64,000 nucleotides of DNA, taken from NCBI GenBank assembly GCA_041738235.1, contig JBGSQF010000013.1:321899-385898 (forward strand). Reading direction: 5' to 3'. Under the pieces are notes generated by a model that saw only the letters and a program-made list of their open reading frames with translations, was not told where the DNA came from and did not search any database. Both the position numbers and the translations under genes were made by a program. This document shows, piece after piece, positions 2,236-39,183 of the stretch. The DNA comes from Minisyncoccia bacterium (lineage in GTDB: Bacteria > Patescibacteriota > Minisyncoccia > Moranbacterales > GCA-2747515). Within the stretch, counting starts at the first letter, position 1. Each line of letters begins with the position of its first letter.

Positions 2236-2404
2236 ATCACCCTCCTTTGAGTGATCGAGTGACATACGATGTGGTAATCTTGGTATACTCCTTTCTTGAA
2301 TATCCGTCCAGAAAAAGCATAGAAACAACACCACATAAAACCACCCTTGCCTGAAATCAAAAAATCGGGTATGCTCGTAAACGTACTCGAACAAAAAAGT
2401 ATAT

Positions 2405-2479
2405 GCCGCGTTCGTCTAGCCCGGTCAGGACGCCAGGTTCTCATCCTGGAAATCATGGGTTCGAATCCCATACGCGGTA
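2405..2479 (+). tRNA. tRNA-Glu (anticodon CUC)
   Basis: Cloverleaf read by eye: acceptor GCCGCGU/ACGCGGU (one G-U pair), D-arm GUCU/GGAC, anticodon stem CCAGG/CCUGG with loop UUCUCAU, T-arm AUGGG-UUCGAAU-CCCAU, discriminator A. CCA not encoded. Strongly resembles bacterial tRNA-Glu. Confidence 0.7.
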
Positions 2480-2491
2480 CAAATAGCAACC

Positions 2492-2526
2492 AAAAAAGAT
2501 GGTCTTAATGGCCATCTTTTTTTGTT
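2492..2526 (+). terminator. rho-independent terminator downstream of tRNA-Glu
   Basis: 8-bp stem AAAGATGG/CCATCTTT followed by a T-run of 7 or more. Confidence 0.5.
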
Positions 2527-2535
2527 TTTGTGTAG

Positions 2536-2672
2536 CCACGTATGGGATGAGAAGGGTATTTCAAAAAGGCAAACTGCTTTGCGTTTTTGAAAACCCGGGC
2601 TTTGGAGGAGAAAGCAAGGCATGTGCCAAAGGGCACGACTTGCGACGGAGGAAAAGGAATCCCATACGCGGT
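2536..2672 (+). repeat. ~137-nt structured direct repeat, copy 1 (attL-like; carries an 18-nt identical copy of the tRNA-Glu 3' end)
   Basis: About 90% identical to 6319-6456. Ends pair as a 10-bp stem CGTATGGGAT/ATCCCATACG. Internal hairpins GGCATGTGCC and GCAAG...CTTGC. The 3' end AATCCCATACGCGGTACA is identical to tRNA positions 2464-2481. Confidence 0.7.
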
Positions 2673-2678
2673 ACACTT

Positions 2679-2708
2679 AAAAAATGCCTTTTCAAAAGGC
2701 ATTTTTTT
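2679..2708. terminator. bidirectional rho-independent terminator
   Basis: A-run, palindrome ATGCCTT-TTCAA-AAGGCAT, then T7. Could terminate + transcription through repeat copy 1 and/or the minus-strand gene ending at 2888. Confidence 0.5.
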
Positions 2709-2710
2709 CT

Positions 2711-2738
2711 TACCTGTGTATGAGATTCGAACCTGATT
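2711..2738 (-). other. decayed inverted copy of the tRNA-Glu 3' half (att-site remnant)
   Basis: Minus-strand reading AATCAGGTTCGAATCTCATACACAGGTA aligns with tRNA AATCATGGGTTCGAATCCCATACGCGGTA, with a 2-nt deletion and 4 substitutions. Confidence 0.4.
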
Positions 2739-2887
2739 GTCGACACAATAACTCACTACCCACTCACTCACCGTATCTCTCCCCTTCTTTTTTCCAATAA
2801 AAAACCGACTCTTCCTTAAGTCGGCTGGGATGTCTCCCATTCGTGGCCATCTTTGGTCTTTGATTGCTCTCATCTTCTCTACTTTCC

Positions 2888-4537
2888 TCAATAGCAGAGA
2901 TAGTTGTCGTTCCAGGTATGCGGATCGGAAGGCTCCAGCCATTGCACACACCGCTTCCCTCCAATTGGTCCGGCACTGGACCAGGAGAAGTTAAGCGGAC
3001 TGCTCGGTGGCACGCAGAGGTAGTTGTCGTTCCAAGTATGCGGGTCAGCGCTTTCTCTAATCTGCGTACAGCGCATCCCTCCGATCGATCCGGCGCTGTT
3101 CCAACGCATCCCGTAGTCCTGGGTTGCGCAGAAGTAGTTATCCATCCAGGTATGCGGGTCAGCTCCTTCCGAGATCTGCGTGCAGTAGGCCCCGGAAACG
3201 GGTCCGGCATAGGACCAGACAAAAGTGCCGTCGGGACTTGTGGGGAAGTTAGTTACCGTGAACCCCATCGTCTGGGCATTATTGCCTTCGTTAGACTCAT
3301 GCAGGTTTCCCTGGTAGTCGGCGTAACATTGATAGGTGCGAGTTCCTGTGTCTCCCAGTCGGAAGCTATTGCTTATGTACTCCATCTTTTTTGCTCCGAC
3401 TCGCATGTCGCCTGCATCGACACCGTCATCTCCACGGCGGTTTCCTTGATTGATTTGGTAGTCAATGCGGAAACCGTTTGGGGCGTCACGGTTACCCACG
3501 TTTTGCACCTCGCAATACGGGTTGACGTAAGAATCCTTTCGAATGAATCCTCCCTGTCGAATAACCCAACCGTTTACCTTGAGGTACAGGTCGGAAACGA
3601 TGAGGTCGGCCTTCCAAGGCACGACATGGTAGGTGGCGCTTTTGCAGTTGTTGGCTTCGTTTAGCTCCGGAAGCCAGCCTTTGGAGTCCACGCAACAGGT
3701 GTACGTGCGATCTCCGGTGTTGCCCAGCTTCCAGCTGTCCCAGACCACTTCCGTGGCAATTTCACCCACTCTCGATTCTCCGGGGTCAAGGAAGTCCTCG
3801 TCACGCTCACTGCCATCCATACGGTGCGATACCTTGACTTGCAGAGGCGAGTCGATCTCGCCCAGATTGGTCATCTCGCAGTACGGATGCCAATAGTTAT
3901 CCTCCAATAATGTGGCGCCGTTGTAGTAGCGAGCACCCGTTATGGCATCAGAGAAATAGACGTCGGTGACGGTGAGGTCGGGACGCAGGCTTGTGACCTC
4001 GTACCGTTCCACACGGCTCTTGTTGTCACCCTCGTCATACTCTTCGACTTCGTTCCTGAAGTCGATCTCGGTGCGGAAGGCGATTGAGGAGATACCATCG
4101 GGGATGATGTAATCCTTCGTCTCCGTGATCGTCTCGCCTTCGTCGAGCTTGGCGATGGTGATGTAGCCCGTTTGCCATTGGACCCATTCTCCATCGTCGA
4201 TTGACACGAGATACTTGATGTCGATGGTGTCGGCATTGTCCCTCGTCTTCCAATTCCCCGCGTCGCCTCCCACAGCCTTCACCGCGACGCGGTTTCTGGC
4301 TTTCATACCGGGAAGGAATTGATCGTGTCCGGCGTAGAGCTCGTTGCCGTCGACACCGAGGATATCGGTGTCGTTTTTGAGGTTGACGGGGTCGAGGGGT
4401 TGAGGGTCGGTGGGATCAGATGTTGATCCGCCCGCTCCCGAGGTTGTAACAGTGATAGTAACTCCCTCGCAATCGGAAGCGAATGCCTCCGGAAGCAGAA
4501 GGAATAATGCAGTGACGAACAGTATGCCATATCTCAT
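2888..4537 (-). CDS. secreted repeat protein (549 aa) with CARDB-like segments and three C-terminal ~45-aa Cys repeats (C..DPHTW.DNY.C)
   Basis: ATG at 4537 with SD GGAGGAAAT upstream. Signal peptide MRYGILFVTALFLLLPEAFA. Three C-terminal ~130-nt tandem coding repeats. Elevated GC (~55%). The longer ORF start at 4663 overlaps the upstream gene and lacks an RBS. Confidence 0.7.
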   Translation of the reverse strand: MRYGILFVTALFLLLPEAFASDCEGVTITVTTSGAGGSTSDPTDPQPLDPVNLKNDTDILGVDGNELYAGHDQFLPGMKARNRVAVKAVGGDAGNWKTRDNADTIDIKYLVSIDDGEWVQWQTGYITIAKLDEGETITETKDYIIPDGISSIAFRTEIDFRNEVEEYDEGDNKSRVERYEVTSLRPDLTVTDVYFSDAITGARYYNGATLLEDNYWHPYCEMTNLGEIDSPLQVKVSHRMDGSERDEDFLDPGESRVGEIATEVVWDSWKLGNTGDRTYTCCVDSKGWLPELNEANNCKSATYHVVPWKADLIVSDLYLKVNGWVIRQGGFIRKDSYVNPYCEVQNVGNRDAPNGFRIDYQINQGNRRGDDGVDAGDMRVGAKKMEYISNSFRLGDTGTRTYQCYADYQGNLHESNEGNNAQTMGFTVTNFPTSPDGTFVWSYAGPVSGAYCTQISEGADPHTWMDNYFCATQDYGMRWNSAGSIGGMRCTQIRESADPHTWNDNYLCVPPSSPLNFSWSSAGPIGGKRCVQWLEPSDPHTWNDNYLCY

Positions 4538-4580
4538 GGCCGGATTTCCTCCGTTTTTGGGTTGATTGGTTGACATGTGA

Positions 4581-5300
4581 TCACTTGATGCACATGTCAC
4601 CTTTACCGAAGAGTGCATCATAGCTGACATCGTCCGGGTAATGCACCTGGAAGATGTCCGCACACACAGGCCAGGCGTACGTTCTCACGATCTGTCGGTT
4701 GCTGTCGAGTCCGTACCAGGCTTGTGCTTTGATGCACGAGGTGTCGAAGGGGTACCAGGCGTAGTTACCGACCTTGCGGACGGTGAACTGGTTGCCGGGG
4801 ATGGTGGCGGGGTCTTTCTCGTAGATGAACCCACGGAGGGTCCAACTGCCCTTAACATCAGATCCAAGATCCGTATTACGGTGATAAGTGTTACCGCTTC
4901 CTGGGTAGTAAGTGGCGTGATTAATGCCATCCTCAAACCCCTGGCTCTTATACCAATCCATCTCCAAAACATCGAAAGATCCGTCGGTGTATGCCTCCTC
5001 GACGTAAGCGACATGGCCTTCGAACTCCGCGATTGCGCCATCTTTCGGCTCGAACCCGACCATGAAGTCCAGGTTCCGAAGCTTATCGGACCACTGTCCG
5101 CCGTTCCATCCACTTCCGGTTATCGCCGAGGCGATGTCCGGGCGTTTGTATGCGGCCCACCAGGTGCAGTTTCCATGGTCACCACACTCGAAATGGCTCG
5201 TCGTGGACGTATATCCATAACACACCGAGTCACCAGCCAGCGCATTCACTCCGAAGAAAAACACGCAGACGCCAATCAGCCGAGCAAGTAAATTGCTCAT
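4581..5300 (-). CDS. secreted CHAP-domain peptidoglycan hydrolase/amidase
   Basis: Signal peptide. CHAP signature with Cys in GNCTWWAAY and downstream His in GHVAYVE. GC about 55%. Confidence 0.7.
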   Translation of the reverse strand: MSNLLARLIGVCVFFFGVNALAGDSVCYGYTSTTSHFECGDHGNCTWWAAYKRPDIASAITGSGWNGGQWSDKLRNLDFMVGFEPKDGAIAEFEGHVAYVEEAYTDGSFDVLEMDWYKSQGFEDGINHATYYPGSGNTYHRNTDLGSDVKGSWTLRGFIYEKDPATIPGNQFTVRKVGNYAWYPFDTSCIKAQAWYGLDSNRQIVRTYAWPVCADIFQVHYPDDVSYDALFGKGDMCIK

Positions 5301-5413
5301 GATATAAATCCTCTTTCAAGTTGTTAAGGGACGCACATTCTTTGAGAAACGGATATTACCGCTTCAGAGATCGCACGAGAGGTCATGCGATCAAAAAGAG
5401 GTAAAACTGTATC

Positions 5414-6103
5414 TTACTTTTTGAGAATGATACTCTCTGCCATTGTATCAAGAATTTCTTTTCTTATGATATTTTCTTGAGTCATTCTGGCAGTAAGTGT
5501 AAGTGAAATCTTCTTATTGATAATATAGTAAGACTGTTGCATTTGAGAATTTTCATACGTAGCCGAGCAATATGCAATAAAAGGTAATTTTTTGTCATTA
5601 AGAATTTTACATTCAGCAGAGGGATTATTGTCTTTTGCCATGTAGAATATGGAGTCTATCTCATCTTGAGGAGTTCCAGCATCCGAGGTTGCTGTTCCCC
5701 TGTCCGTAATCACGATCTCTGTATTATTGAAAATATCTAATGGAACATTTGATCCTATACCAGAGAAAATTCCAATGTCTGGATGTTTCTCAATATCAAA
5801 ATCTGGGTTATTCGTAATTATTTGCGCATTTTCGTTTGCATCTAGCACTTTCCAATACCACTCTTTCGGGAATTTAATCGTGAAATATTCCGTTTCTTTT
5901 GTTTGCCAATGACTCACATCGAGATCGACATCTGTCACAAAATTTTGATTCTGTTCTTCTTGCTTCCTTTGCTCTTCTTCGGTCTGTTTTTGATTCATTT
6001 CTATCCCCCTCTCCACCTTCCCCGAATACCACAAAACACCCCCGGCAATGAGGACGGCAACAACAAAGAAAATGCTGAGGAATGCGATGCTTTTTTTGGT
6101 CAT
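5414..6103 (-). CDS. membrane-anchored hypothetical protein (N-terminal TM, Gln/Glu-rich linker, beta-rich ectodomain)
   Basis: The ORF track start is a TTG. The in-frame ATG (MTKKSIAFLSIFFVVAVLIAGG) immediately precedes a TM helix. AT-rich (~33% GC), unlike the adjacent island genes. Confidence 0.45.
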   Translation of the reverse strand: MTKKSIAFLSIFFVVAVLIAGGVLWYSGKVERGIEMNQKQTEEEQRKQEEQNQNFVTDVDLDVSHWQTKETEYFTIKFPKEWYWKVLDANENAQIITNNPDFDIEKHPDIGIFSGIGSNVPLDIFNNTEIVITDRGTATSDAGTPQDEIDSIFYMAKDNNPSAECKILNDKKLPFIAYCSATYENSQMQQSYYIINKKISLTLTARMTQENIIRKEILDTMAESIILKK

Positions 6104-6318
6104 AGGGATGATAATAGATTGAATATATTTCTTGTTCAATTTACTATAATTAGCGGGATATGTCAATGTTTTTTAAGCCCGAATTTTTAAAAATACTCCA
6201 AAATCCCCCATCATTTCCCCTACCCTACTCCAATCCAAAGTTCCAAGAACATCACACAGGGGGTACAACTAAGGTAAACAAAAAATACACCCTTCCCAAG
6301 GATGTATTTTTTTTGTAA

Positions 6319-6456
6319 GCGCGTATGGGATGAGAAGGGTATTTCAAAAAGGCAAACTGCTTTGCATTTTTGAAAACCCGGGCTTTGGAGGAGAAAGCGA
6401 GGCATGTGCCAAAGGCACGCCTCGCGACGGAGGAAAAGGAATCCCGTACGCGGTTC
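6319..6456 (+). repeat. ~137-nt structured direct repeat, copy 2 (attR-like; tRNA-Glu 3' end with 2 mismatches)
   Basis: Same architecture as copy 1. Compensatory changes keep the pairing (GCAAG/CTTGC becomes GCGAG/CTCGC; an A.C mismatch at the stem end becomes G-C). Preceded by a terminator-like hairpin ATACACCCTT/AAGGATGTAT plus T8 at about 6285-6314. Confidence 0.7.
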
Positions 6457-6659
6457 AACTCAAGAGCATCTTTTTAAAGTGCATTCTACCTATTTTAGGG
6501 ATTACTCATCTAACTCAATCCCTTCTTTATAATTAGATCCTCATCAACTATCGCTACTGAACAGGAGGTAGAGATAAAAAATCCCCCCCTCTAGCTGATA
6601 AGGGATACACAAAAAAATATGTCACTACCAAAAAAATACAAGTTACCTTGACTTTCCTC

Positions 6660-9600
6660 CTACCACGTCCACGGATTCCACAATACAAAATTCTTAGTAG
6701 GTCGTGTCAAAGCTGGAGGAGTGACGGATTGTTGCGTCTGTTGAGTTTCTTGGGTTGAATTCGTTGGGTTTTGGATTTCTTCTGTGACTTGTCTTTCTGT
6801 ACGTGCTCCTTGCACACTCCCCTCTTCTGCTTGAGTTTGCGTTTCTGTCTGTGATGATACTTGTTGTATCTGACTTACGTAGTTTAGTACAATCGAAGTA
6901 TCTACTCTGTTTCCCGCTTTATCATAGGCTCGAATATTGAGAAGATACGTTCCAAGAGGAAGAGATTCGGGAAGAAGATAAAAAGACTCTTCAACACCTT
7001 GTCTTCTCCAAGACTTTAGAACTTTTCCATTCATATCGACAAGTTGAACCTTATAATAGGAAAGACCCGATCCATTAGGATTGTCAGCTGCAAGAAAATC
7101 TATTCTCTCTTTTCTGGTGAGAGTCTTTTTTTCTGGAAGAGGATTAATGAAAAAGGGATCGGTCTTATCAGTGATAAGAGTAAAGAAGTCAGAGATATCT
7201 GATCTATTCCCAGTGCTATCGATATAGCGTACGGCATATTGATTTTTTCCTTCCTTACTAGAAAGATTGAAGTTCCAAGAGCCCTTCTCATTTATAGAGA
7301 TAGTTTTGAGTTTTTTAGTACCTCCTTTATCTGTTTTGGTATAGAGAGTTATGGTTCCATTTCTTGCTTTTGGATTCTTTCCCTTAAGTCTGGGAGTGGT
7401 ATCGGATCGATAGTTAACATCTTTGAAAGAAATAGATTCCTCATTAGCAGAAAGGTTGCTCTTATTGTCATTTTGGAATTGTTCAAGGTTGGATTCTGAA
7501 GTTTGAAGCGTGGCGGAGTGAATGACAGGAGTGATATTGGGATCTTGTGTAGAAAGAGTTGCTTTCCAAGTAAAATTATTTGCTTTGGTATACTGGGGAA
7601 ATGTTATGGGAGGAGTGAAATCAGCCCAAGTAGATCCGTTGTCTATTGAGTATTGATACTCAATGCTAGTGCCTTCTGGAATCGTTTGATCTGTCTGGAA
7701 AGAGAGGAGTTCATTGGTATTTGGGAAAGAGAGGGTTTGTGAGGTGTAAGTGCCTGAATCAGAGATAAAAAGTCCGTCCTCTTGCCGAGCATATTTGATC
7801 TCCACGCTATCAAGGCTGGGCGTAATGGAATTGTCTTGAGTCGCAAGAACTGCCTTATAGCGAAAGTTGCGGGATAAGTTAACAGGCAGAGCATAAATGC
7901 CAGGATCGGTTCCCAAACTTGTGTATGTTTGACCTTCATCAAAAGAGTAGAACATTTCTATAGAAGTTCCTTCGGGAATAGTGGCTTCCCAAGATAGCTC
8001 AGAATACACCTCTTTTTGGTACGTGTCGGAAATATATTCTAAAGAAAAAAAATAATTCGTATCAAGAACGTTCGTATCTGAATCATTGTCCACATCGGTA
8101 CAGAGATCTGTATTTGATCCTCCAATAGCATAAATCCCACCATTTACCAACTCAGTTGATACTCTATTGAGACCAGTTGGTAATATCCCAATAATATCCC
8201 ATTTATCGTACTCCGGGTCATAGCTATATATATCCTTTGCACGAATAAGCGCATCATCTTTTCCTCCAATATATATAAGCTTACCATTTATAACTACCGT
8301 ATCACCACCACCTCGATATGAAGGCAGAAATGCCAAATCCGTATCCCATGTATCCGTGGCTGGATCATAACTTGCCATAGAGTTGGACACCATACCATCA
8401 CAATCCCGCCTCGCCCCAACGATATACAACTTTCCATTAATAAATTGACCCGAAGCCTGATTCATTTTTACAACAGGGGCAGGTGTTCCGGCCTCCCAAG
8501 TATCTGTTTCTGGATCATAGATCTCCATCTCAGTAGATGAAAGACCAGAACAATCTAAACCACCACTAATGTAGACAGGACCACCTCCCACGACATAGAT
8601 CTTCCCGTTATATACTCCTCCGACAGCTCCTTCCCTCACCCGACTCATAGGTGCGCCCGCTGTCCAAGTATCCGTTTCTGGGTCATATATTTCTACAGAA
8701 GAAAGTTCTGTCTTTGTAGGATAAACTCCGGTAGCACCTCCAAAGACATAGAGTTTGCTATCGTACGCAACAACCATTGGTCTCGTTCTTGTTTGCACCA
8801 TTGGGGATTTAGTCTCCCATGTATCGGTTGCTGTGTCGTAAACCAATAATGTATTATGTCCGCAATTTCCACAACTCATCTTTCCCCCACCCACAACATA
8901 TATTTTTGAACCAATAACAGCACTTCCCGCGCCTTTTGTCTCTTCGGGAAGAGGCGCTTTGTTTTGCCAAGTGTCACTCGATTCAGCATATACGGTTTTA
9001 ACATAAACTCCCTCACTATTATATACGTTATCTATATCAACAACCGAAAGACCGCTTTTATTATCCTCTTCATAGAAAGCCCCTGATTCACTCTTTTTGA
9101 CACTAACATACAAAAGATGATGAGTACCATCCAGAAAAGAATTGTGAACGCTATTATTTACGATTTCTGGAGTTGAAACATTATTATACGTTTTGACCAA
9201 AACATCATCTGCTGGACTCACTGTTCCCCGTGTATCAATAACCGAGAGGGCACCATTATTAATATTGGGATCATTTTTACTACTTACATATAAGAGATCG
9301 TTCGCAGAATCTAAAAAGGCATGCACTACATAATTATTCGCTATCGCTGGGGTGGTAGTTGTTTTATAAGTGATCACCAAAACATCGTCAGTGGCGGTCA
9401 CAGTTCCTTGCGTGTTGATCACGGTAAGACCACCCCCTAAAGTCCCCACATACAAAAGGTTATGCACCGAATCCATAAAGGAGTACGAAACATTGTTACC
9501 CCCGATCGCTGGGGTGGTAGTTGTTTTATAAGTGATCACCAAAACATCGTCAGTGGCGGTCACAGTTCCTTGCGTGTTGATCACGGTAAGACCACCACTT

Positions 9601-10436
9601 GTACTAACGTAAAGGAGATGCGTCGTCTCATCCAAGAAAGCATGCGATACGGAATTATGTCCTATCGCAGGTGTGGTGGTAGTTTTGTATGTTTTTACAA
9701 GTGTGTCATCACCAGCGCTGACCGTTCCTTGCGTGTTGATCACGGTAAGACCTCCACCCAAAGTAGCTATATAGAGAAGATTACGTAAATCATCAAGAAA
9801 AGCATATTTAACAGTGCTGTCATCGATTGCTGGGGTTGTAGTAGTGGTGTAGGTAGTAACCAAAACATCATCAGAGGGAGAAACAGTTCCTTGCGTGTTG
9901 ATCACAGATAATCCCTGACCATCAATGCTTATGTAGAGAAGATCGTTCTTTAAGAATGAGTTATGTATCATATTCCCGGGCAATGCTGGAGTCGATTCTG
10001 TGGAGTAAGTAATAATCAAACTGTCATCAGTTGGATCAACGGTATTACGCGTGTCTATAACTGAAACGCCTAATGAAGTATTAATATACAAAAGACCCTT
10101 AGAGACATCGAGAAATGAACTCCCTGTATTCCTGCTACTAAGCCCCGCAAAAGATCCGCTGGAATATAAATAACTTTTACCAAGAGTTACTTTCCCCTCA
10201 CCATTACGTGAAACTCTTGTAACAAGAGGACTATTATTTACGTAACCTGAATTAAAATCTCCGTCTGTGGTATCTGTATGAATGGTAGTTTTATATTTTA
10301 GACGTAAGTCTCCCGGAATTTGATAAAGATCAATATTTTCATCAGTTGTCCCCATCTCCCAATCCTCCTGAGAAGTAAAAACTTGCCCCTGACTTGAGGC
10401 GTAGACGAACTGCAAAGAAAAAAAGGGGGCCAACAA
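6660..10436 (-). CDS. giant secreted surface protein (1258 aa): YVTN-like beta-propeller repeats, Kelch-repeat propeller, Ig/FN3-like domains, Gln/Thr-rich C-terminus
   Basis: Six or seven ~54-aa repeats LLYV..GGGLTV(I)NTQGTV...TTTTPAI. Kelch-like blades (KIYVVGGG, KLYVFGG, YDPETDTW). The annotated start is TTG. A canonical signal peptide lies upstream in another frame (see findings). Confidence 0.75.
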   Translation of the reverse strand: MLAPFFSLQFVYASSQGQVFTSQEDWEMGTTDENIDLYQIPGDLRLKYKTTIHTDTTDGDFNSGYVNNSPLVTRVSRNGEGKVTLGKSYLYSSGSFAGLSSRNTGSSFLDVSKGLLYINTSLGVSVIDTRNTVDPTDDSLIITYSTESTPALPGNMIHNSFLKNDLLYISIDGQGLSVINTQGTVSPSDDVLVTTYTTTTTPAIDDSTVKYAFLDDLRNLLYIATLGGGLTVINTQGTVSAGDDTLVKTYKTTTTPAIGHNSVSHAFLDETTHLLYVSTSGGLTVINTQGTVTATDDVLVITYKTTTTPAIGGNNVSYSFMDSVHNLLYVGTLGGGLTVINTQGTVTATDDVLVITYKTTTTPAIANNYVVHAFLDSANDLLYVSSKNDPNINNGALSVIDTRGTVSPADDVLVKTYNNVSTPEIVNNSVHNSFLDGTHHLLYVSVKKSESGAFYEEDNKSGLSVVDIDNVYNSEGVYVKTVYAESSDTWQNKAPLPEETKGAGSAVIGSKIYVVGGGKMSCGNCGHNTLLVYDTATDTWETKSPMVQTRTRPMVVAYDSKLYVFGGATGVYPTKTELSSVEIYDPETDTWTAGAPMSRVREGAVGGVYNGKIYVVGGGPVYISGGLDCSGLSSTEMEIYDPETDTWEAGTPAPVVKMNQASGQFINGKLYIVGARRDCDGMVSNSMASYDPATDTWDTDLAFLPSYRGGGDTVVINGKLIYIGGKDDALIRAKDIYSYDPEYDKWDIIGILPTGLNRVSTELVNGGIYAIGGSNTDLCTDVDNDSDTNVLDTNYFFSLEYISDTYQKEVYSELSWEATIPEGTSIEMFYSFDEGQTYTSLGTDPGIYALPVNLSRNFRYKAVLATQDNSITPSLDSVEIKYARQEDGLFISDSGTYTSQTLSFPNTNELLSFQTDQTIPEGTSIEYQYSIDNGSTWADFTPPITFPQYTKANNFTWKATLSTQDPNITPVIHSATLQTSESNLEQFQNDNKSNLSANEESISFKDVNYRSDTTPRLKGKNPKARNGTITLYTKTDKGGTKKLKTISINEKGSWNFNLSSKEGKNQYAVRYIDSTGNRSDISDFFTLITDKTDPFFINPLPEKKTLTRKERIDFLAADNPNGSGLSYYKVQLVDMNGKVLKSWRRQGVEESFYLLPESLPLGTYLLNIRAYDKAGNRVDTSIVLNYVSQIQQVSSQTETQTQAEEGSVQGARTERQVTEEIQNPTNSTQETQQTQQSVTPPALTRPTKNFVLWNPWTW

Positions 10437-38749: not shown

Positions 38750-39183
38750 GGGGTTGTTTAGATTCGACAGGTTGTTATTTGACATAAGTAAGCAAGCCGG
38801 TTCACGCGCGGTAACACCGAAACCTTCTCCGCGCACTCGATAAGTGCAAACTTCATCACAAAAGCCAAAGACGCTATTGCGCGAGCATTTAGCACCTCTT
38901 TCGCTACCGCCCTGGCTTAATTGCCGAGGCCATCGAATTTCGTGACTCCTTATAACGAATGTTCGGTGTCATATGTATAAGGATAGTCCTCTTCCCCCTT
39001 CTCGAAGGAAGAAGGACGAAACCTCCGAGACCGCCTTAGATGTACTTTGTTTGTTTCTGGGCATCTTCGGTTGGTTCAGGTGAAGGGAAGTAATGCGCCT
39101 TTTATCTGTCAAACAAACTCTGCTTGAAGAAAGCTTTGTCATATCATCTCTGGACATGGGTGCAATTCCCATCAACTCCACCA
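38750..39183 (+). ncRNA. ssrA: tmRNA (ssrA), ~434 nt
   Basis: 5' GGGGTTGTTTAGATTCGACAGG matches the tmRNA consensus GGGGCUGAUUCUGGAUUCGACGGG. 3' GGACATGGGTGCAATTCCCATCAACTCCACCA matches the T-arm plus acceptor and encoded CCA. Acceptor pairs GGGGUUG/CAACUCC. In-frame tag ORF ends ...FATALA-TAA (stop 38918-38920). Lies just downstream of smpB. Confidence 0.8.

Follow-up and report, generated by a model that had tools for sequence, protein, structure and literature searches.

What kind of element is a repeat that folds like an RNA and yet lies beside a tRNA gene from which its own ends are copied? The window analysed here, a 64,000-nt stretch of a Minisyncoccia bacterium contig, carries two copies of such a repeat, for which an initial annotation, made from the sequence alone, had proposed a small structured RNA rather than a passive att scar.

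Layout of the repeat pair and its tRNA gene

The repeat pair was found where it had been described, on the + strand at positions 2536-2675 and 6320-6457, with 93% identity over ∼140 nt, ∼10-11 differences (one of them a 1-nt indel) and no third copy within the 64-kb window. Copy 1 was delimited by covariance model, folds, family structure and tail identity, and copy 2 by covariance model, fold and tail comparison; they match the model at 111.5 bits (E = 7e-36) and 110.5 bits (E = 1.5e-35), respectively. Each copy folds much more stably than shuffled sequence does (RNA z = -5.8, -6.6 on the + strand and -7.5 on the - strand).

Upstream of copy 1 lies the cognate tRNA, a tRNA-Glu(CUC) gene at 2405-2480 on the + strand (ARAGORN; Rfam tRNA, 61.4 bits), which the initial annotation had overlooked and which is the source of the closing stem. 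Both arms of the element come from the T-loop, T-stem and acceptor 3′ strand of this tRNA, and a 19-nt block, GAATCCCATACGCGGTACA, stands at 2463-2481 and again at 2657-2675. The spacer between tRNA-Glu and copy 1 holds a terminator-like hairpin (2492-2522, +; terminator scan), and a hairpin with a T-run occupies the same spacer in most family members inspected. Copy 1 then reads, on the + strand, as a 5′ arm forming the 5′ strand of helix P1 (2536-2548), the junction GAGAA (2549-2553), helix P2 with the apex AAACUGCUUU (2554-2596), GGG (2597-2599), helix P1b (2600-2603 with 2653-2656), a purine internal loop (2604-2609 with 2647-2652), helix P3 (2614-2643, with an inner hairpin at 2623-2636) and the 3′ strand of P1 (2659-2671), which falls within the tRNA-identical tail (2657-2675). 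P1b, a short CUUU/AAAG helix, had also been overlooked. A hairpin 3′ of copy 1 (2679-2708, read from the sequence and assigned to neither strand) is preceded by an A-run and followed by a T-run, so that it could terminate transcription in either direction; similar hairpins stand 3′ of the tail in many family members.

The two copies are separated by a 3.6-kb segment (2740-6275, -) that is missing in the sister strain L074. It encodes, all on the - strand, a CARDB protein (2888-4663) and a CHAP protein (4581-5300), both assigned by Pfam, and a 250-aa protein (5414-6166); Pfam identified no recombinase domain in this cargo. A further hairpin with a T-run (6280-6312, neither strand) precedes copy 2 and resembles the spacer hairpin 3′ of tRNA-Glu in strain L142. 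Copy 2 repeats the layout of copy 1 on the + strand, with P1 (6320-6331 with 6441-6452), GAGAA (6332-6336), P2 (6337-6379), P1b (6383-6386 with 6435-6438), P3 (6397-6425, inner hairpin 6406-6418) and a tail (6439-6457) that has two mismatches to the tRNA. The terminator scan bore out the description of both copies as flanked by hairpins followed by T-runs.

The base changes on which the RNA proposal had rested hold up. GCAAG/CUUGC of copy 1 (2614-2618 with 2639-2643) is indeed GCGAG/CUCGC in copy 2, where an additional A-to-C change extends the helix to GCGAGGC/GCCUCGC (6397-6403 with 6419-6425), and where copy 1 has the mismatch A2538.C, copy 2 has a G-C pair. The change of A2664 to G6446 does give a U.G wobble on the + strand, as claimed, but does not by itself identify that strand as the RNA; a third point that had been overlooked is that A.C in copy 1 would be a wobble on the opposite strand, and the repeat pair alone therefore leaves the strand unfixed. 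The A/U-rich arm agrees with its earlier description. The long closing stem is likewise present, but its length of 12-13 bp is peculiar to the window's lineage and not family-wide, and the proposed internal hairpin GGCAUGUGCC is not the conserved helix, the family showing GUGCC/GGCAC instead (2623-2627 with 2632-2636).

A conserved fold across Patescibacteria

The window repeats are two paralogues of a ∼125-nt element family that is widespread in Patescibacteria (CPR). Further members occur at 26 genome loci across this group and in three sister strains, and the covariance model recovers 32 full-length copies scoring 87-136 bits. Each genome seen so far has 1-3 copies, cases of two or three copies at different tRNAs within one MAG occur, and the tRNAs that carry the element differ between related genomes.

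The conserved core is a three-way junction composed of P1, in which the two arms of the element pair, P2, P1b, a purine-rich 6x6 internal loop and P3. All four helices covary across the 32 homologues, in agreement with the conserved structure first suggested by the repeat pair, and pairs changed on both sides number 28 of 40. Pairing is kept well above controls, with 92.9% of cells paired, whereas shuffles reach 76.8% and slid controls 30-60%. Covariation in all four helices shows that the element is no passive scar and that its fold is under selection. Unpaired motifs, namely the AACUGCUU apex and the GGAGGA/GGGGGA loop, are kept across CPR phyla, the internal loops GGAGGA/GGGGGA being invariant, and element size and the gap between tRNA and core are constant across the family.

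The family is absent from Rfam 15, from viral, phage and plasmid collections and from the searchable literature, and appears to be undescribed; it is probably a new type of miniature mobile element or tRNA-linked small RNA. The Rfam search that had been suggested for the repeat gave no family at the gathering threshold: the window, 13 family loci and scans at E<=10 (window 2350-2750, L136 640-900 and L142 850-1450) yielded nothing but tRNA, tmRNA and a single group I intron, the best match overlapping the element being RsaE on the minus strand with 27 bits against a threshold of 79. A tRNA or tRNA-like RNA (tmRNA, YrlA-type) was considered and rejected, as neither ARAGORN nor the Rfam tRNA and tmRNA models call the element. 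Its tRNA content is restricted to nt 57-76 plus antisense nt 54 to ∼63, with no full cloverleaf or T-arm, and an acceptor-like helix is found only in the window's lineage. No recurrent protein family was found within 4.5 kb in 29 loci, nor any recombinase, reverse transcriptase or nuclease gene near any copy. The antitoxin-like role offered in the initial annotation is unsupported, there being no conserved protein partner near the element in the 29 loci.

Link to the tRNA and possible origins

Almost all copies follow a tRNA gene on the same strand at a distance of 16-61 nt, always in its orientation, and the tRNAs concerned are of more than 10 types. From tRNA to core, the gap is either 16-18 or 48-61 nt, the latter in most loci. 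The 3′ tail repeats the tRNA exactly, beginning at T-loop nt 57 and running to the 3′ end; this block of 17-30 nt is exact in 22 of the 28 copies whose locus includes an upstream tRNA, its first position is nt 57 in every case, and the tRNA genes beside the copies are intact (ARAGORN, Rfam). CCA is present in the tail only at four loci (L110, L123, L124, L135) and in the tRNA only at three (L117, L120, L133), and at L125 the identity continues 12 nt into the trailer. Tails with trailer bases and inconsistent CCA indicate a duplication of DNA rather than an end selected for its likeness to a tRNA. The 5′ arm is antisense to tRNA nt 54 to ∼63; in 24 of 30 copies the complementary stretch extends without a break over 8-17 nt, and the part of the arm complementary to nt 54-56 has no partner inside the element. 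Arm and tRNA agree at nt 55 in 24/24 cases (three letter states) and at nt 59 in 23/24 (four states), and none of 20,000 permutations of arm/tRNA partners reached the observed match. P1 corresponds in sequence to the tRNA gene duplex at nt 57-63(65) and varies with the bases specific to each tRNA. The earlier guesses of a tRNA-like mimic and a mobile-element RNA were apt in that the tail reproduces the 3′ end of the adjacent tRNA letter for letter; the contrast drawn with an att scar was wrong, as every copy ends in a direct repeat of the tRNA 3′ end, just as an attR site does. The element is structured and att-like together.

Comparison of strains bears on mobility. The tRNA-Glu gene of four strains is followed by one copy, two copies, or two copies plus cargo. 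In L074 two copies lie adjacent, ∼60 nt apart, and the 3.6 kb between the window copies is therefore strain-specific cargo. Copy 2 is the positional counterpart of the degenerate, visibly decaying L074 copy B, yet is 96.7% identical to L074 copy A. An independent case of two copies plus cargo occurs at the tRNA-Asp of L127, where the cargo again contains no recombinase domain. No empty tRNA-Glu site was recovered among the four strains, and no excised or circular form of the element was seen.

Our preferred reading, held with somewhat less than even confidence, is that of a non-autonomous element that enters tRNA T-loops and whose fold is its cis-acting part. The element would enter the tRNA gene by recombining in the T-loop, the junction falling between nt 56 and 57. 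As is the case for classical integrative elements that target tRNA genes, it would keep the tRNA intact by supplying a new 3′ end, in most cases together with a terminator, while the original 3′ end would be moved beyond the insert and become the tail. Its conserved fold would be recognised by an enzyme encoded elsewhere: P1 would mimic, in one folded strand, the duplex of the target T-loop and T-stem, and the unpaired GAA could pair with target nt 54-56. That strand might be a transcript or single-stranded DNA, as in CTXphi attP(+) or integron attC, and the order of tRNA, copy 1, 3.6-kb cargo and copy 2 may reflect a second integration or homologous recombination into a resident copy. Several observations count against a mobile element: no recombinase candidate has been identified, neither an empty site nor an excised or circular form was seen, no autonomous, phage-borne or plasmid-borne version turned up, the conservation of unpaired motifs across CPR phyla suits a functional RNA better than a selfish DNA site, the -10-like box, terminators and P2 wobbles described below point to a + strand transcript, and a simple integration model does not explain the new 3′ block that each new tRNA needs. 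A more specific and rather doubtful version has the insertion site chosen by base pairing, through one arm complementary to the T-loop and T-stem and another identical to nt 57 to the end, with a host enzyme recombining and each insertion re-setting the arms. If true, the element would be a nucleic-acid-guided integrative element without protein genes, specific to CPR bacteria.

The main rival, a host small RNA gene on the + strand that acts with the neighbouring tRNA, is possible but on balance unlikely. Its 5′ arm would pair with the T-loop and T-stem, or its tail would mimic or compete with the tRNA 3′ half; it could, for example, control tRNA maturation, stability or surveillance, with position and tail as by-products of the gene's spread. 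Such a role would suit the conservation of fold and unpaired motifs across phyla, the constant co-orientation with the tRNA, the covariation with tRNA nt 54-56, which suggests pairing in trans, and a predicted strand-swapped fold of a read-through transcript with the tRNA. A + strand transcript is further suggested by the modest enrichment of a -10-like box (TANNNT) 3-12 nt upstream of P1 (15/32 copies vs 8.4 +/- 2.5, p ∼0.01), by the frequent terminator after the tail and by wobbles in P2 (6 G.U vs 0 A.C); the P1 wobbles in L116 and L128 also lie on the + strand. Against this, wobbles overall are rare and near-symmetric (G.U vs A.C = 23 vs 17) and both strands fold with DNA parameters, which fits a constraint at the DNA level, so that + strand RNA is weakly supported as the active form. 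Furthermore, a terminator usually stands between tRNA and element, a scan of the window detected no sigma-70-type promoter, only 1-3 tRNAs per genome carry the element and these vary between related genomes, and the tail, with its trailer bases and inconsistent CCA, is a duplication of DNA.

The arms might instead belong to a guide nucleic acid that serves a recombinase or nuclease encoded at another site, following the logic of bridge RNA, seekRNA or omega-RNA, in which the core is a scaffold and the two arms, re-set at each insertion, read the tRNA gene near the crossover point on both of its strands. A 3′ segment of 17-24 nt identical to the target, a 5′ complement that spans the junction and includes nt 54-56, a GAA junction without a cis partner and the TTC that precedes the target block in most tRNAs all agree with this, but we regard it as improbable: none of the 29 loci has an IS110, TnpB, IscB or Cas gene within 4.5 kb, the invariant internal loops are not programmable, only the terminal arms track the target, and the arms pair with each other and would mask one another. 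Less probable still is a tRNA repair cassette, in which a self-cleaving core would free the tail, from nt 57 to its end, with a 5′-OH and the 5′ arm would splint its ligation to a tRNA cut in the T-loop and ending at nt 56. T-loop-cleaving toxins exist, the geometry fits exactly in that a second set of nt 57 to the end is held by an arm complementary to nt 54-63 whose 54-56 complements stay free, and the purine loops of the core are highly conserved; the idea is purely speculative, with no match to an Rfam ribozyme family, no linked ligase gene and tails that at times lack CCA or carry mismatches. We give the least credence to passive remnants, whether att scars of decayed integrative elements or a functionless segmental duplication. 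A directly repeated tRNA 3′ end and tandem copies at a tRNA are known from decayed elements (the CIME concept, PMC5704250) and L074 copy B is decaying, but compensatory changes in all helices already contradict this reading, as do a core conserved in sequence and structure across CPR phyla, a 5′ arm that stays complementary to each tRNA and the constancy of size and gap.

Comparison with known systems

Small structured intergenic repeats of the ERIC/IRU, Correia, RPE and REP/BIME kinds are of unknown mobility. They are imperfect palindromes of 100-150 nt without their own transposase, often transcribed, conserved across genera with compensatory changes and present in high copy number at many intergenic sites. 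The element shares their small size, lack of a transposase and compensatory changes, and differs in its 1-3 copies per genome seen, its placement only after tRNA genes and its target-derived arms. Guide RNAs of mobile elements (IS110 bridge RNA/seekRNA, TnpB/IscB omega-RNA) place a scaffold and target-matching segments at an element end, the guide being set by flanking DNA. The element likewise joins a structured scaffold to target-matching segments; unlike these guides, it has no adjacent cognate protein gene (no IS110, TnpB or IscB nearby), its loops are invariant, and it has a target duplication of 17-24 nt, whereas those systems make none.

Integrative elements that target tRNA or tmRNA genes, and their decayed derivatives (P4-type islands, ICE/IME, CIMEs, Dehalococcoides ssrA islands), were also compared. 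As in these, the element sits at a tRNA 3′ end, has a direct repeat starting in the T-loop, restores the tRNA and occurs in tandem arrays with strain-specific cargo (PMC5704250; PMC3146451); a direct repeat of the tRNA 3′ end surrounds the insert, in the manner of attL and attR. In contrast, it measures only ∼180 bp including the spacer, no tyrosine or serine recombinase lies within or adjoining it (window cargo, L127 cargo and 29 loci within 4.5 kb), its interior is a covarying fold common to phyla and not decaying genes, and an antisense copy of the target T-loop stands at its other end. CIMEs, which derive from a decayed ICE or IME, have lost integration and transfer genes and kept attL and attR (PMC5704250). 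The att-like repeats and lack of genes fit this description; derivation from an ICE or IME is unsupported, given the conserved fold of the interior and the lack of any related full-size element, and no autonomous, phage-borne or plasmid-borne version was found in the collections searched.

The CTXphi attP(+) and integron attC sites arise from intrastrand pairing that imitates a duplex target, and CTXphi, which encodes no recombinase of its own, has attP(+) used by the host XerCD (PMC3442271, PMC4246890, PMC4792948). The element differs in its target, a tRNA T-loop and not dif or attI, and in forming a three-way junction with conserved loops and not a simple hairpin; its likeness to Xer and single-stranded DNA systems is one of sequence and fold. 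P1 is nevertheless an intrastrand stem of the kind that defines a folded att site, reproducing tRNA gene nt 57-63(65) as the duplex target, and the element, which like CTXphi encodes no recombinase, shares with attP(+) and attC a stem structure conserved over sequence and unpaired bases next to the crossover (PMC3442271, PMC4246890, PMC4792948).

Repeat pair at the tRNA-Glu gene

The window contains two copies of a ∼125-nt folded element, copy 1 (2536–2675, + strand) and copy 2 (6320–6457, + strand), and a covariance model recovered only these two within the 64 kb. The copies are 93% identical, differing by ∼10 substitutions and one 1-nt indel. The compensatory differences on which the initial annotation based its proposal of a small RNA were all found: GCAAG/CUUGC in copy 1 is replaced by GCGAG/CUCGC in copy 2, with a further change extending the helix to 7 bp, copy 2 has a G-C pair where copy 1 has an A·C mismatch, and an A-to-G change yields a U·G wobble on the + strand. 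Both copies are flanked by T-run hairpins, as had been described, whereas the internal hairpin proposed at GGCAUGUGCC is not the conserved helix, the family having GUGCC/GGCAC instead. Both copies fold far more stably than shuffled sequence, with RNA z-scores of −5.8 and −6.6 for the + strand and of −7.5 for the − strand.

Immediately upstream of copy 1 lies a tRNA-Glu(CUC) gene (2405–2480) that the initial annotation had not seen. The final 19 nt of copy 1 (GAATCCCATACGCGGTACA, 2657–2675) are identical to the tRNA-Glu 3′ end at 2463–2481, and the 5′ strand of its long closing stem is complementary to the same stretch; the stem is thus made of the tRNA T-stem and acceptor 3′ strand.

The tRNA-Glu gene is 100% identical in the window and in contigs from all three sister strains, and the DNA following it varies. 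One copy follows it in L076 and in L142, and two copies ∼60 nt apart in L074, the distal of which (copy B) is degenerate. In the window, two copies enclose a strain-specific 3.6-kb segment (2740–6275) that is absent in L074 and encodes, on the − strand, a CARDB protein, a CHAP-domain protein and a 250-aa protein without a Pfam match. The P2 and P3 arms of the element vary widely between strain groups and remain paired (UUUCAAAAAGGCAAA/UUUGCGUUUUUGAAA vs. CUCUCAAAAUGUAAA/UUUACAUUUUGAGAG; in P3, GCAAG/CUUGC vs. UCAUUUUCC/GGAAAAUGA). Similarity of the core is decoupled from that of the flanks in this lineage: L076 and L142 share 82% identity in the core and 76% in the flanking gene, and window copy 2 shares 96.7% identity with L074 copy A and just 60% with copy B, which occupies the corresponding position. 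This discordance suggests conversion or replacement.

The neighboring genes in the window are bacterial (an RNase H-like protein, Mur ligase, penicillin-binding protein, CARDB, CHAP and Kelch surface proteins), and the RNase H-like protein has its best named relatives in Candidatus Moranbacteria and other Patescibacteria. A 1258-aa Kelch-repeat/bacterial Ig-like protein (6660–10436, − strand) carries internal ∼160-nt tandem repeats (∼9100–10120), and a tmRNA gene (38750–39183, + strand; Rfam, 98.5 bits) has an unusually long predicted tag peptide, ANFITKAKDAIARAFSTSFATALA. A few tens of nucleotides downstream of each window-lineage copy, a reverse-strand T-arm-like fragment, GGGATTCGAACC (complement of GGTTCGAATCCC), was observed (window 2722–2733 and ∼6497–6511; L074 ∼7024–7040; L142 ∼1174–1187). 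Neither ARAGORN nor Rfam makes a call at these sites, and the fragment may be what is left of a further tRNA or att site.

A structured family across the CPR

Homologues were sought in one genome per species using the interior motif AAACTGCTTT N11–15 CCCGG N4–6 GGAGGAG. Of the 28 loci returned, 26 were real; the matches at L112 and L126 fell inside coding sequence by chance and were discarded. The hosts include Saccharibacteria, Azambacteria, Wolfebacteria, Sungbacteria, Kerfeldbacteria, Paceibacterota and unclassified Patescibacteria. Two loci, L125 and L133 (contigs CAZBFB010000021.1 and CAZBFB010000002.1), belong to one MAG labelled Gammaproteobacteria, a label that may reflect misbinning; the other real matches are CPR or unclassified. 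One MAG carries at least three copies, spread over three different tRNAs, and another carries two. A diverged variant at L125 (2732–2850, + strand), directly after tRNA-Asp and with a tail identity of 22 nt, retains P1, an ACUGCU apex, GGGAGGAG, P3 and GGAGGGGA, so the family is wider than the exact search pattern could catch. On an Azambacteria contig (L132), a group I intron (3510–3709, + strand; Rfam, 65 bits) lies ∼0.7 kb from the element.

Searches of JGI metagenomes with the closing-stem pattern CGTATGGGAT N95–125 ATCCCRTACG gave 27 matches, all in unrelated coding regions or palindromes, which indicates that the 12–13 bp stem is peculiar to the window lineage. The family is not present in Rfam 15, even at E ≤ 10 and with consensus-like members as queries. 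Viral contigs scanned with different parts of the element returned chance seeds only, BLAST against annotated phage and plasmid collections gave no match to it, and no account of the family was found in the searchable literature.

Three sources agree on the architecture: RNAalifold applied to the family, single sequences folded independently, and the covariance-model alignment. P1 (GGGAUUC/GAAUCCC, frequently 9 bp) is followed by a 3-nt GAA junction and by P2, which runs from GGGU with a bulged A through ∼15 bp to the invariant apex AAACUGCUUU and closes with ACCC. A GGG then precedes P1b (CUCU/AGAG), which is stacked on P1 and covaries (CUUU/AAAG, CUUC/GAAG, CUCC/GGAG). Beyond a nearly invariant 6×6 purine internal loop (GGAGGA/GGGGGA) lies P3, of ∼9–10 bp plus an inner hairpin, whose sequence is free. 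Across 32 copies, in an alignment itself fitted to the model, 92.9% of pair cells held standard pairs, compared with 76.8±0.7% after shuffling and 30–60% when partners were slid by 1–3 columns. On the same model-fitted alignment of 32 copies, both-sided changes occurred in 28 of 40 pairs and every helix was supported. The structural evidence for the family is strong. A small peptide was considered and rejected, as the AUG after GGAGGAG is not conserved and indels in P3 are not in threes, and ORFs over the element are artefacts of nucleotide conservation. Spurious ORFs of this kind, overlapping the element itself, were the sole “family” shared near the 29 loci surveyed for context; within 4.5 kb of the element these showed no recombinase, reverse transcriptase, nuclease or other recurrent protein family, and none of the loci examined had a conserved neighbor gene (integrase, RT, TnpB or toxin).

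Correspondence with the cognate tRNA

A same-strand tRNA gene precedes every copy that has enough upstream sequence, with the exception of second copies behind cargo. The tRNAs used are Glu, Gly, Gln, Trp, Leu, Asp, Ser, Lys, Pro and Ala, together with one tRNA-like gene missed by ARAGORN. The gap between tRNA and element is 16–18 nt in three loci and 48–61 nt elsewhere, the longer gap usually containing a terminator hairpin. At L127, the layout of the window is independently repeated at a tRNA-Asp: the tRNA is followed by a hairpin, a copy and its tail, 1.6 kb encoding a DUF6159 membrane protein, and then a hairpin, a copy and the same tail.

In 22 of 28 copies the 3′ tail is an exact copy of the cognate tRNA over 17–30 nt. 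The left edge of this identity always falls between T-loop nt 56 and 57, and the right edge is usually at, or a few bases from, the tRNA 3′ end. CCA is encoded in the tail only in some loci and in the tRNA only in others, and at L125 the identity extends 12 nt into the trailer. Boundaries of this kind mark a duplication at the DNA level, for example an attL/attR pair; neither an end selected for tRNA likeness nor copying from mature tRNA would look like this. Reverse transcription of mature tRNA, with a stop in the T-loop that yields a copy of the 3′ end, was rejected as the source, since tails sometimes lack CCA and sometimes carry trailer bases.

The 5′ arm, up to P2, is the reverse complement of cognate tRNA nt 54 to ∼63–65, with 8–17 contiguous matches in 24 of 30 copies. 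Among 24 independent pairs, agreement was complete at nt 55 (24/24) across three letter states (TTC–GAA; TCC–GGA twice; TGC–GCA once), 22/24 at nt 57 (two states) and 23/24 at nt 59 (four states), fell to about half at nt 64–65 (four states), and was at chance level at nt 67 (4/24; three states). No permutation of element–tRNA partners in 20,000 reached the observed match. As nt 54–56 have no partner within the element, their covariation suggests either pairing with the tRNA (or with its gene) or a copying process. An origin as a T-arm with an insertion in its loop was rejected, because TCC and TGC tRNA loops appear in the element as GGA and GCA, the reverse complement rather than a direct copy. 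At T-loop position 55, where T is nearly universal, the tRNA-Lys of L125 (5533–5607) and the tRNA-Asp of L132 have C (TCCGAAT), and the adjoining elements have the matching G. The tRNA-like gene missed by ARAGORN (L130, ∼1826–1957, + strand) is ∼130 nt long with an odd T-loop, TGCAATT, which the arms of the next element match exactly.

Possible origin and relation to known elements

The element is new, widespread and structurally constrained, and is tied physically and by sequence to tRNA-gene 3′ ends. We consider a miniature non-autonomous element that recombines into the T-loops of tRNA genes to be the most likely reading, and hold it at somewhat short of even confidence. Such an element would bring a replacement tRNA 3′ end, usually plus a terminator, and the original 3′ end, displaced downstream, would become the tail. 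The conserved fold would be the part recognized by a trans-encoded enzyme, with P1 mimicking the target duplex within one folded strand. Copy 2 of the window and the 3.6-kb cargo could then represent either another round of integration or a homologous insertion, of the Campbell type, into the copy already present. The main rival, a small RNA linked to the tRNA and either pairing with it or mimicking it, is possible, if doubtful. A guide nucleic acid for an unlinked recombinase is improbable and a tRNA repair cassette very much so; passive scars, which covariation in the family contradicts, are the least credible of all.

That the active form is a + strand RNA is weakly supported. The element is always co-oriented with the tRNA, T-run hairpins follow the tail, and 15 of 32 copies have a −10-like TANNNT 3–12 nt upstream of P1 (8.4±2.5 in shuffled sequence). 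P2 has six G·U against no A·C, and P1 in L116 and L128 shows wobbles on the + strand; overall, however, G·U and A·C number 23 and 17, each <2% of cells, and wobbles are unusually few for an RNA family. Moreover, a sigma-70-type promoter was not found in the window, a terminator usually separates tRNA and element, and the same architecture folds from both DNA strands (z = −6.8 and −8.1). For a hypothetical read-through transcript of tRNA-Glu and copy 1, a strand-swapped fold is predicted, pairing the element 5′ arm with the tRNA 3′ half and the tail with the tRNA 5′ acceptor strand. On this prediction the two would be able to compete for pairing, which does not imply cellular behavior.

The CPR (Patescibacteria) makes up a large share of bacterial diversity and, to our knowledge, almost nothing is known of its non-coding RNAs and mobile DNA. 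A phylum-spanning, structurally well-supported family not in Rfam merits inclusion in RNA and mobile-element annotation. Its unusual architecture, a conserved fold between antisense and sense copies of the neighboring tRNA's T-loop and 3′ end, offers a concrete starting point for testing how very small elements that lack a recombinase of their own target tRNA genes. We think it unlikely that something categorically new is involved, be it base-pairing-directed choice of the target with no protein encoded by the element, or tRNA repair; the former, if true, would be a new, very compact and programmable integration principle. The elements also mark hot spots for gain and loss of strain-specific surface-protein genes, as in the window. 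In CPR MAGs they break contigs and can mislead the annotation of tRNAs and att sites.

Among known systems, the element resembles tRNA-targeting integrative elements in its att-like repeats but differs in that no integrase accompanies it, for which Xer-dependent elements and CIMEs offer a parallel (PMC4246890, PMC5704250). In that its stem mimics the target, it is akin to the folded single-stranded att sites CTXphi attP(+) and integron attC (PMC3442271, PMC4792948). In size and absence of a transposase it is similar to ERIC- and Correia-type repeats, from which it differs by its strict tRNA linkage and target-derived arms.
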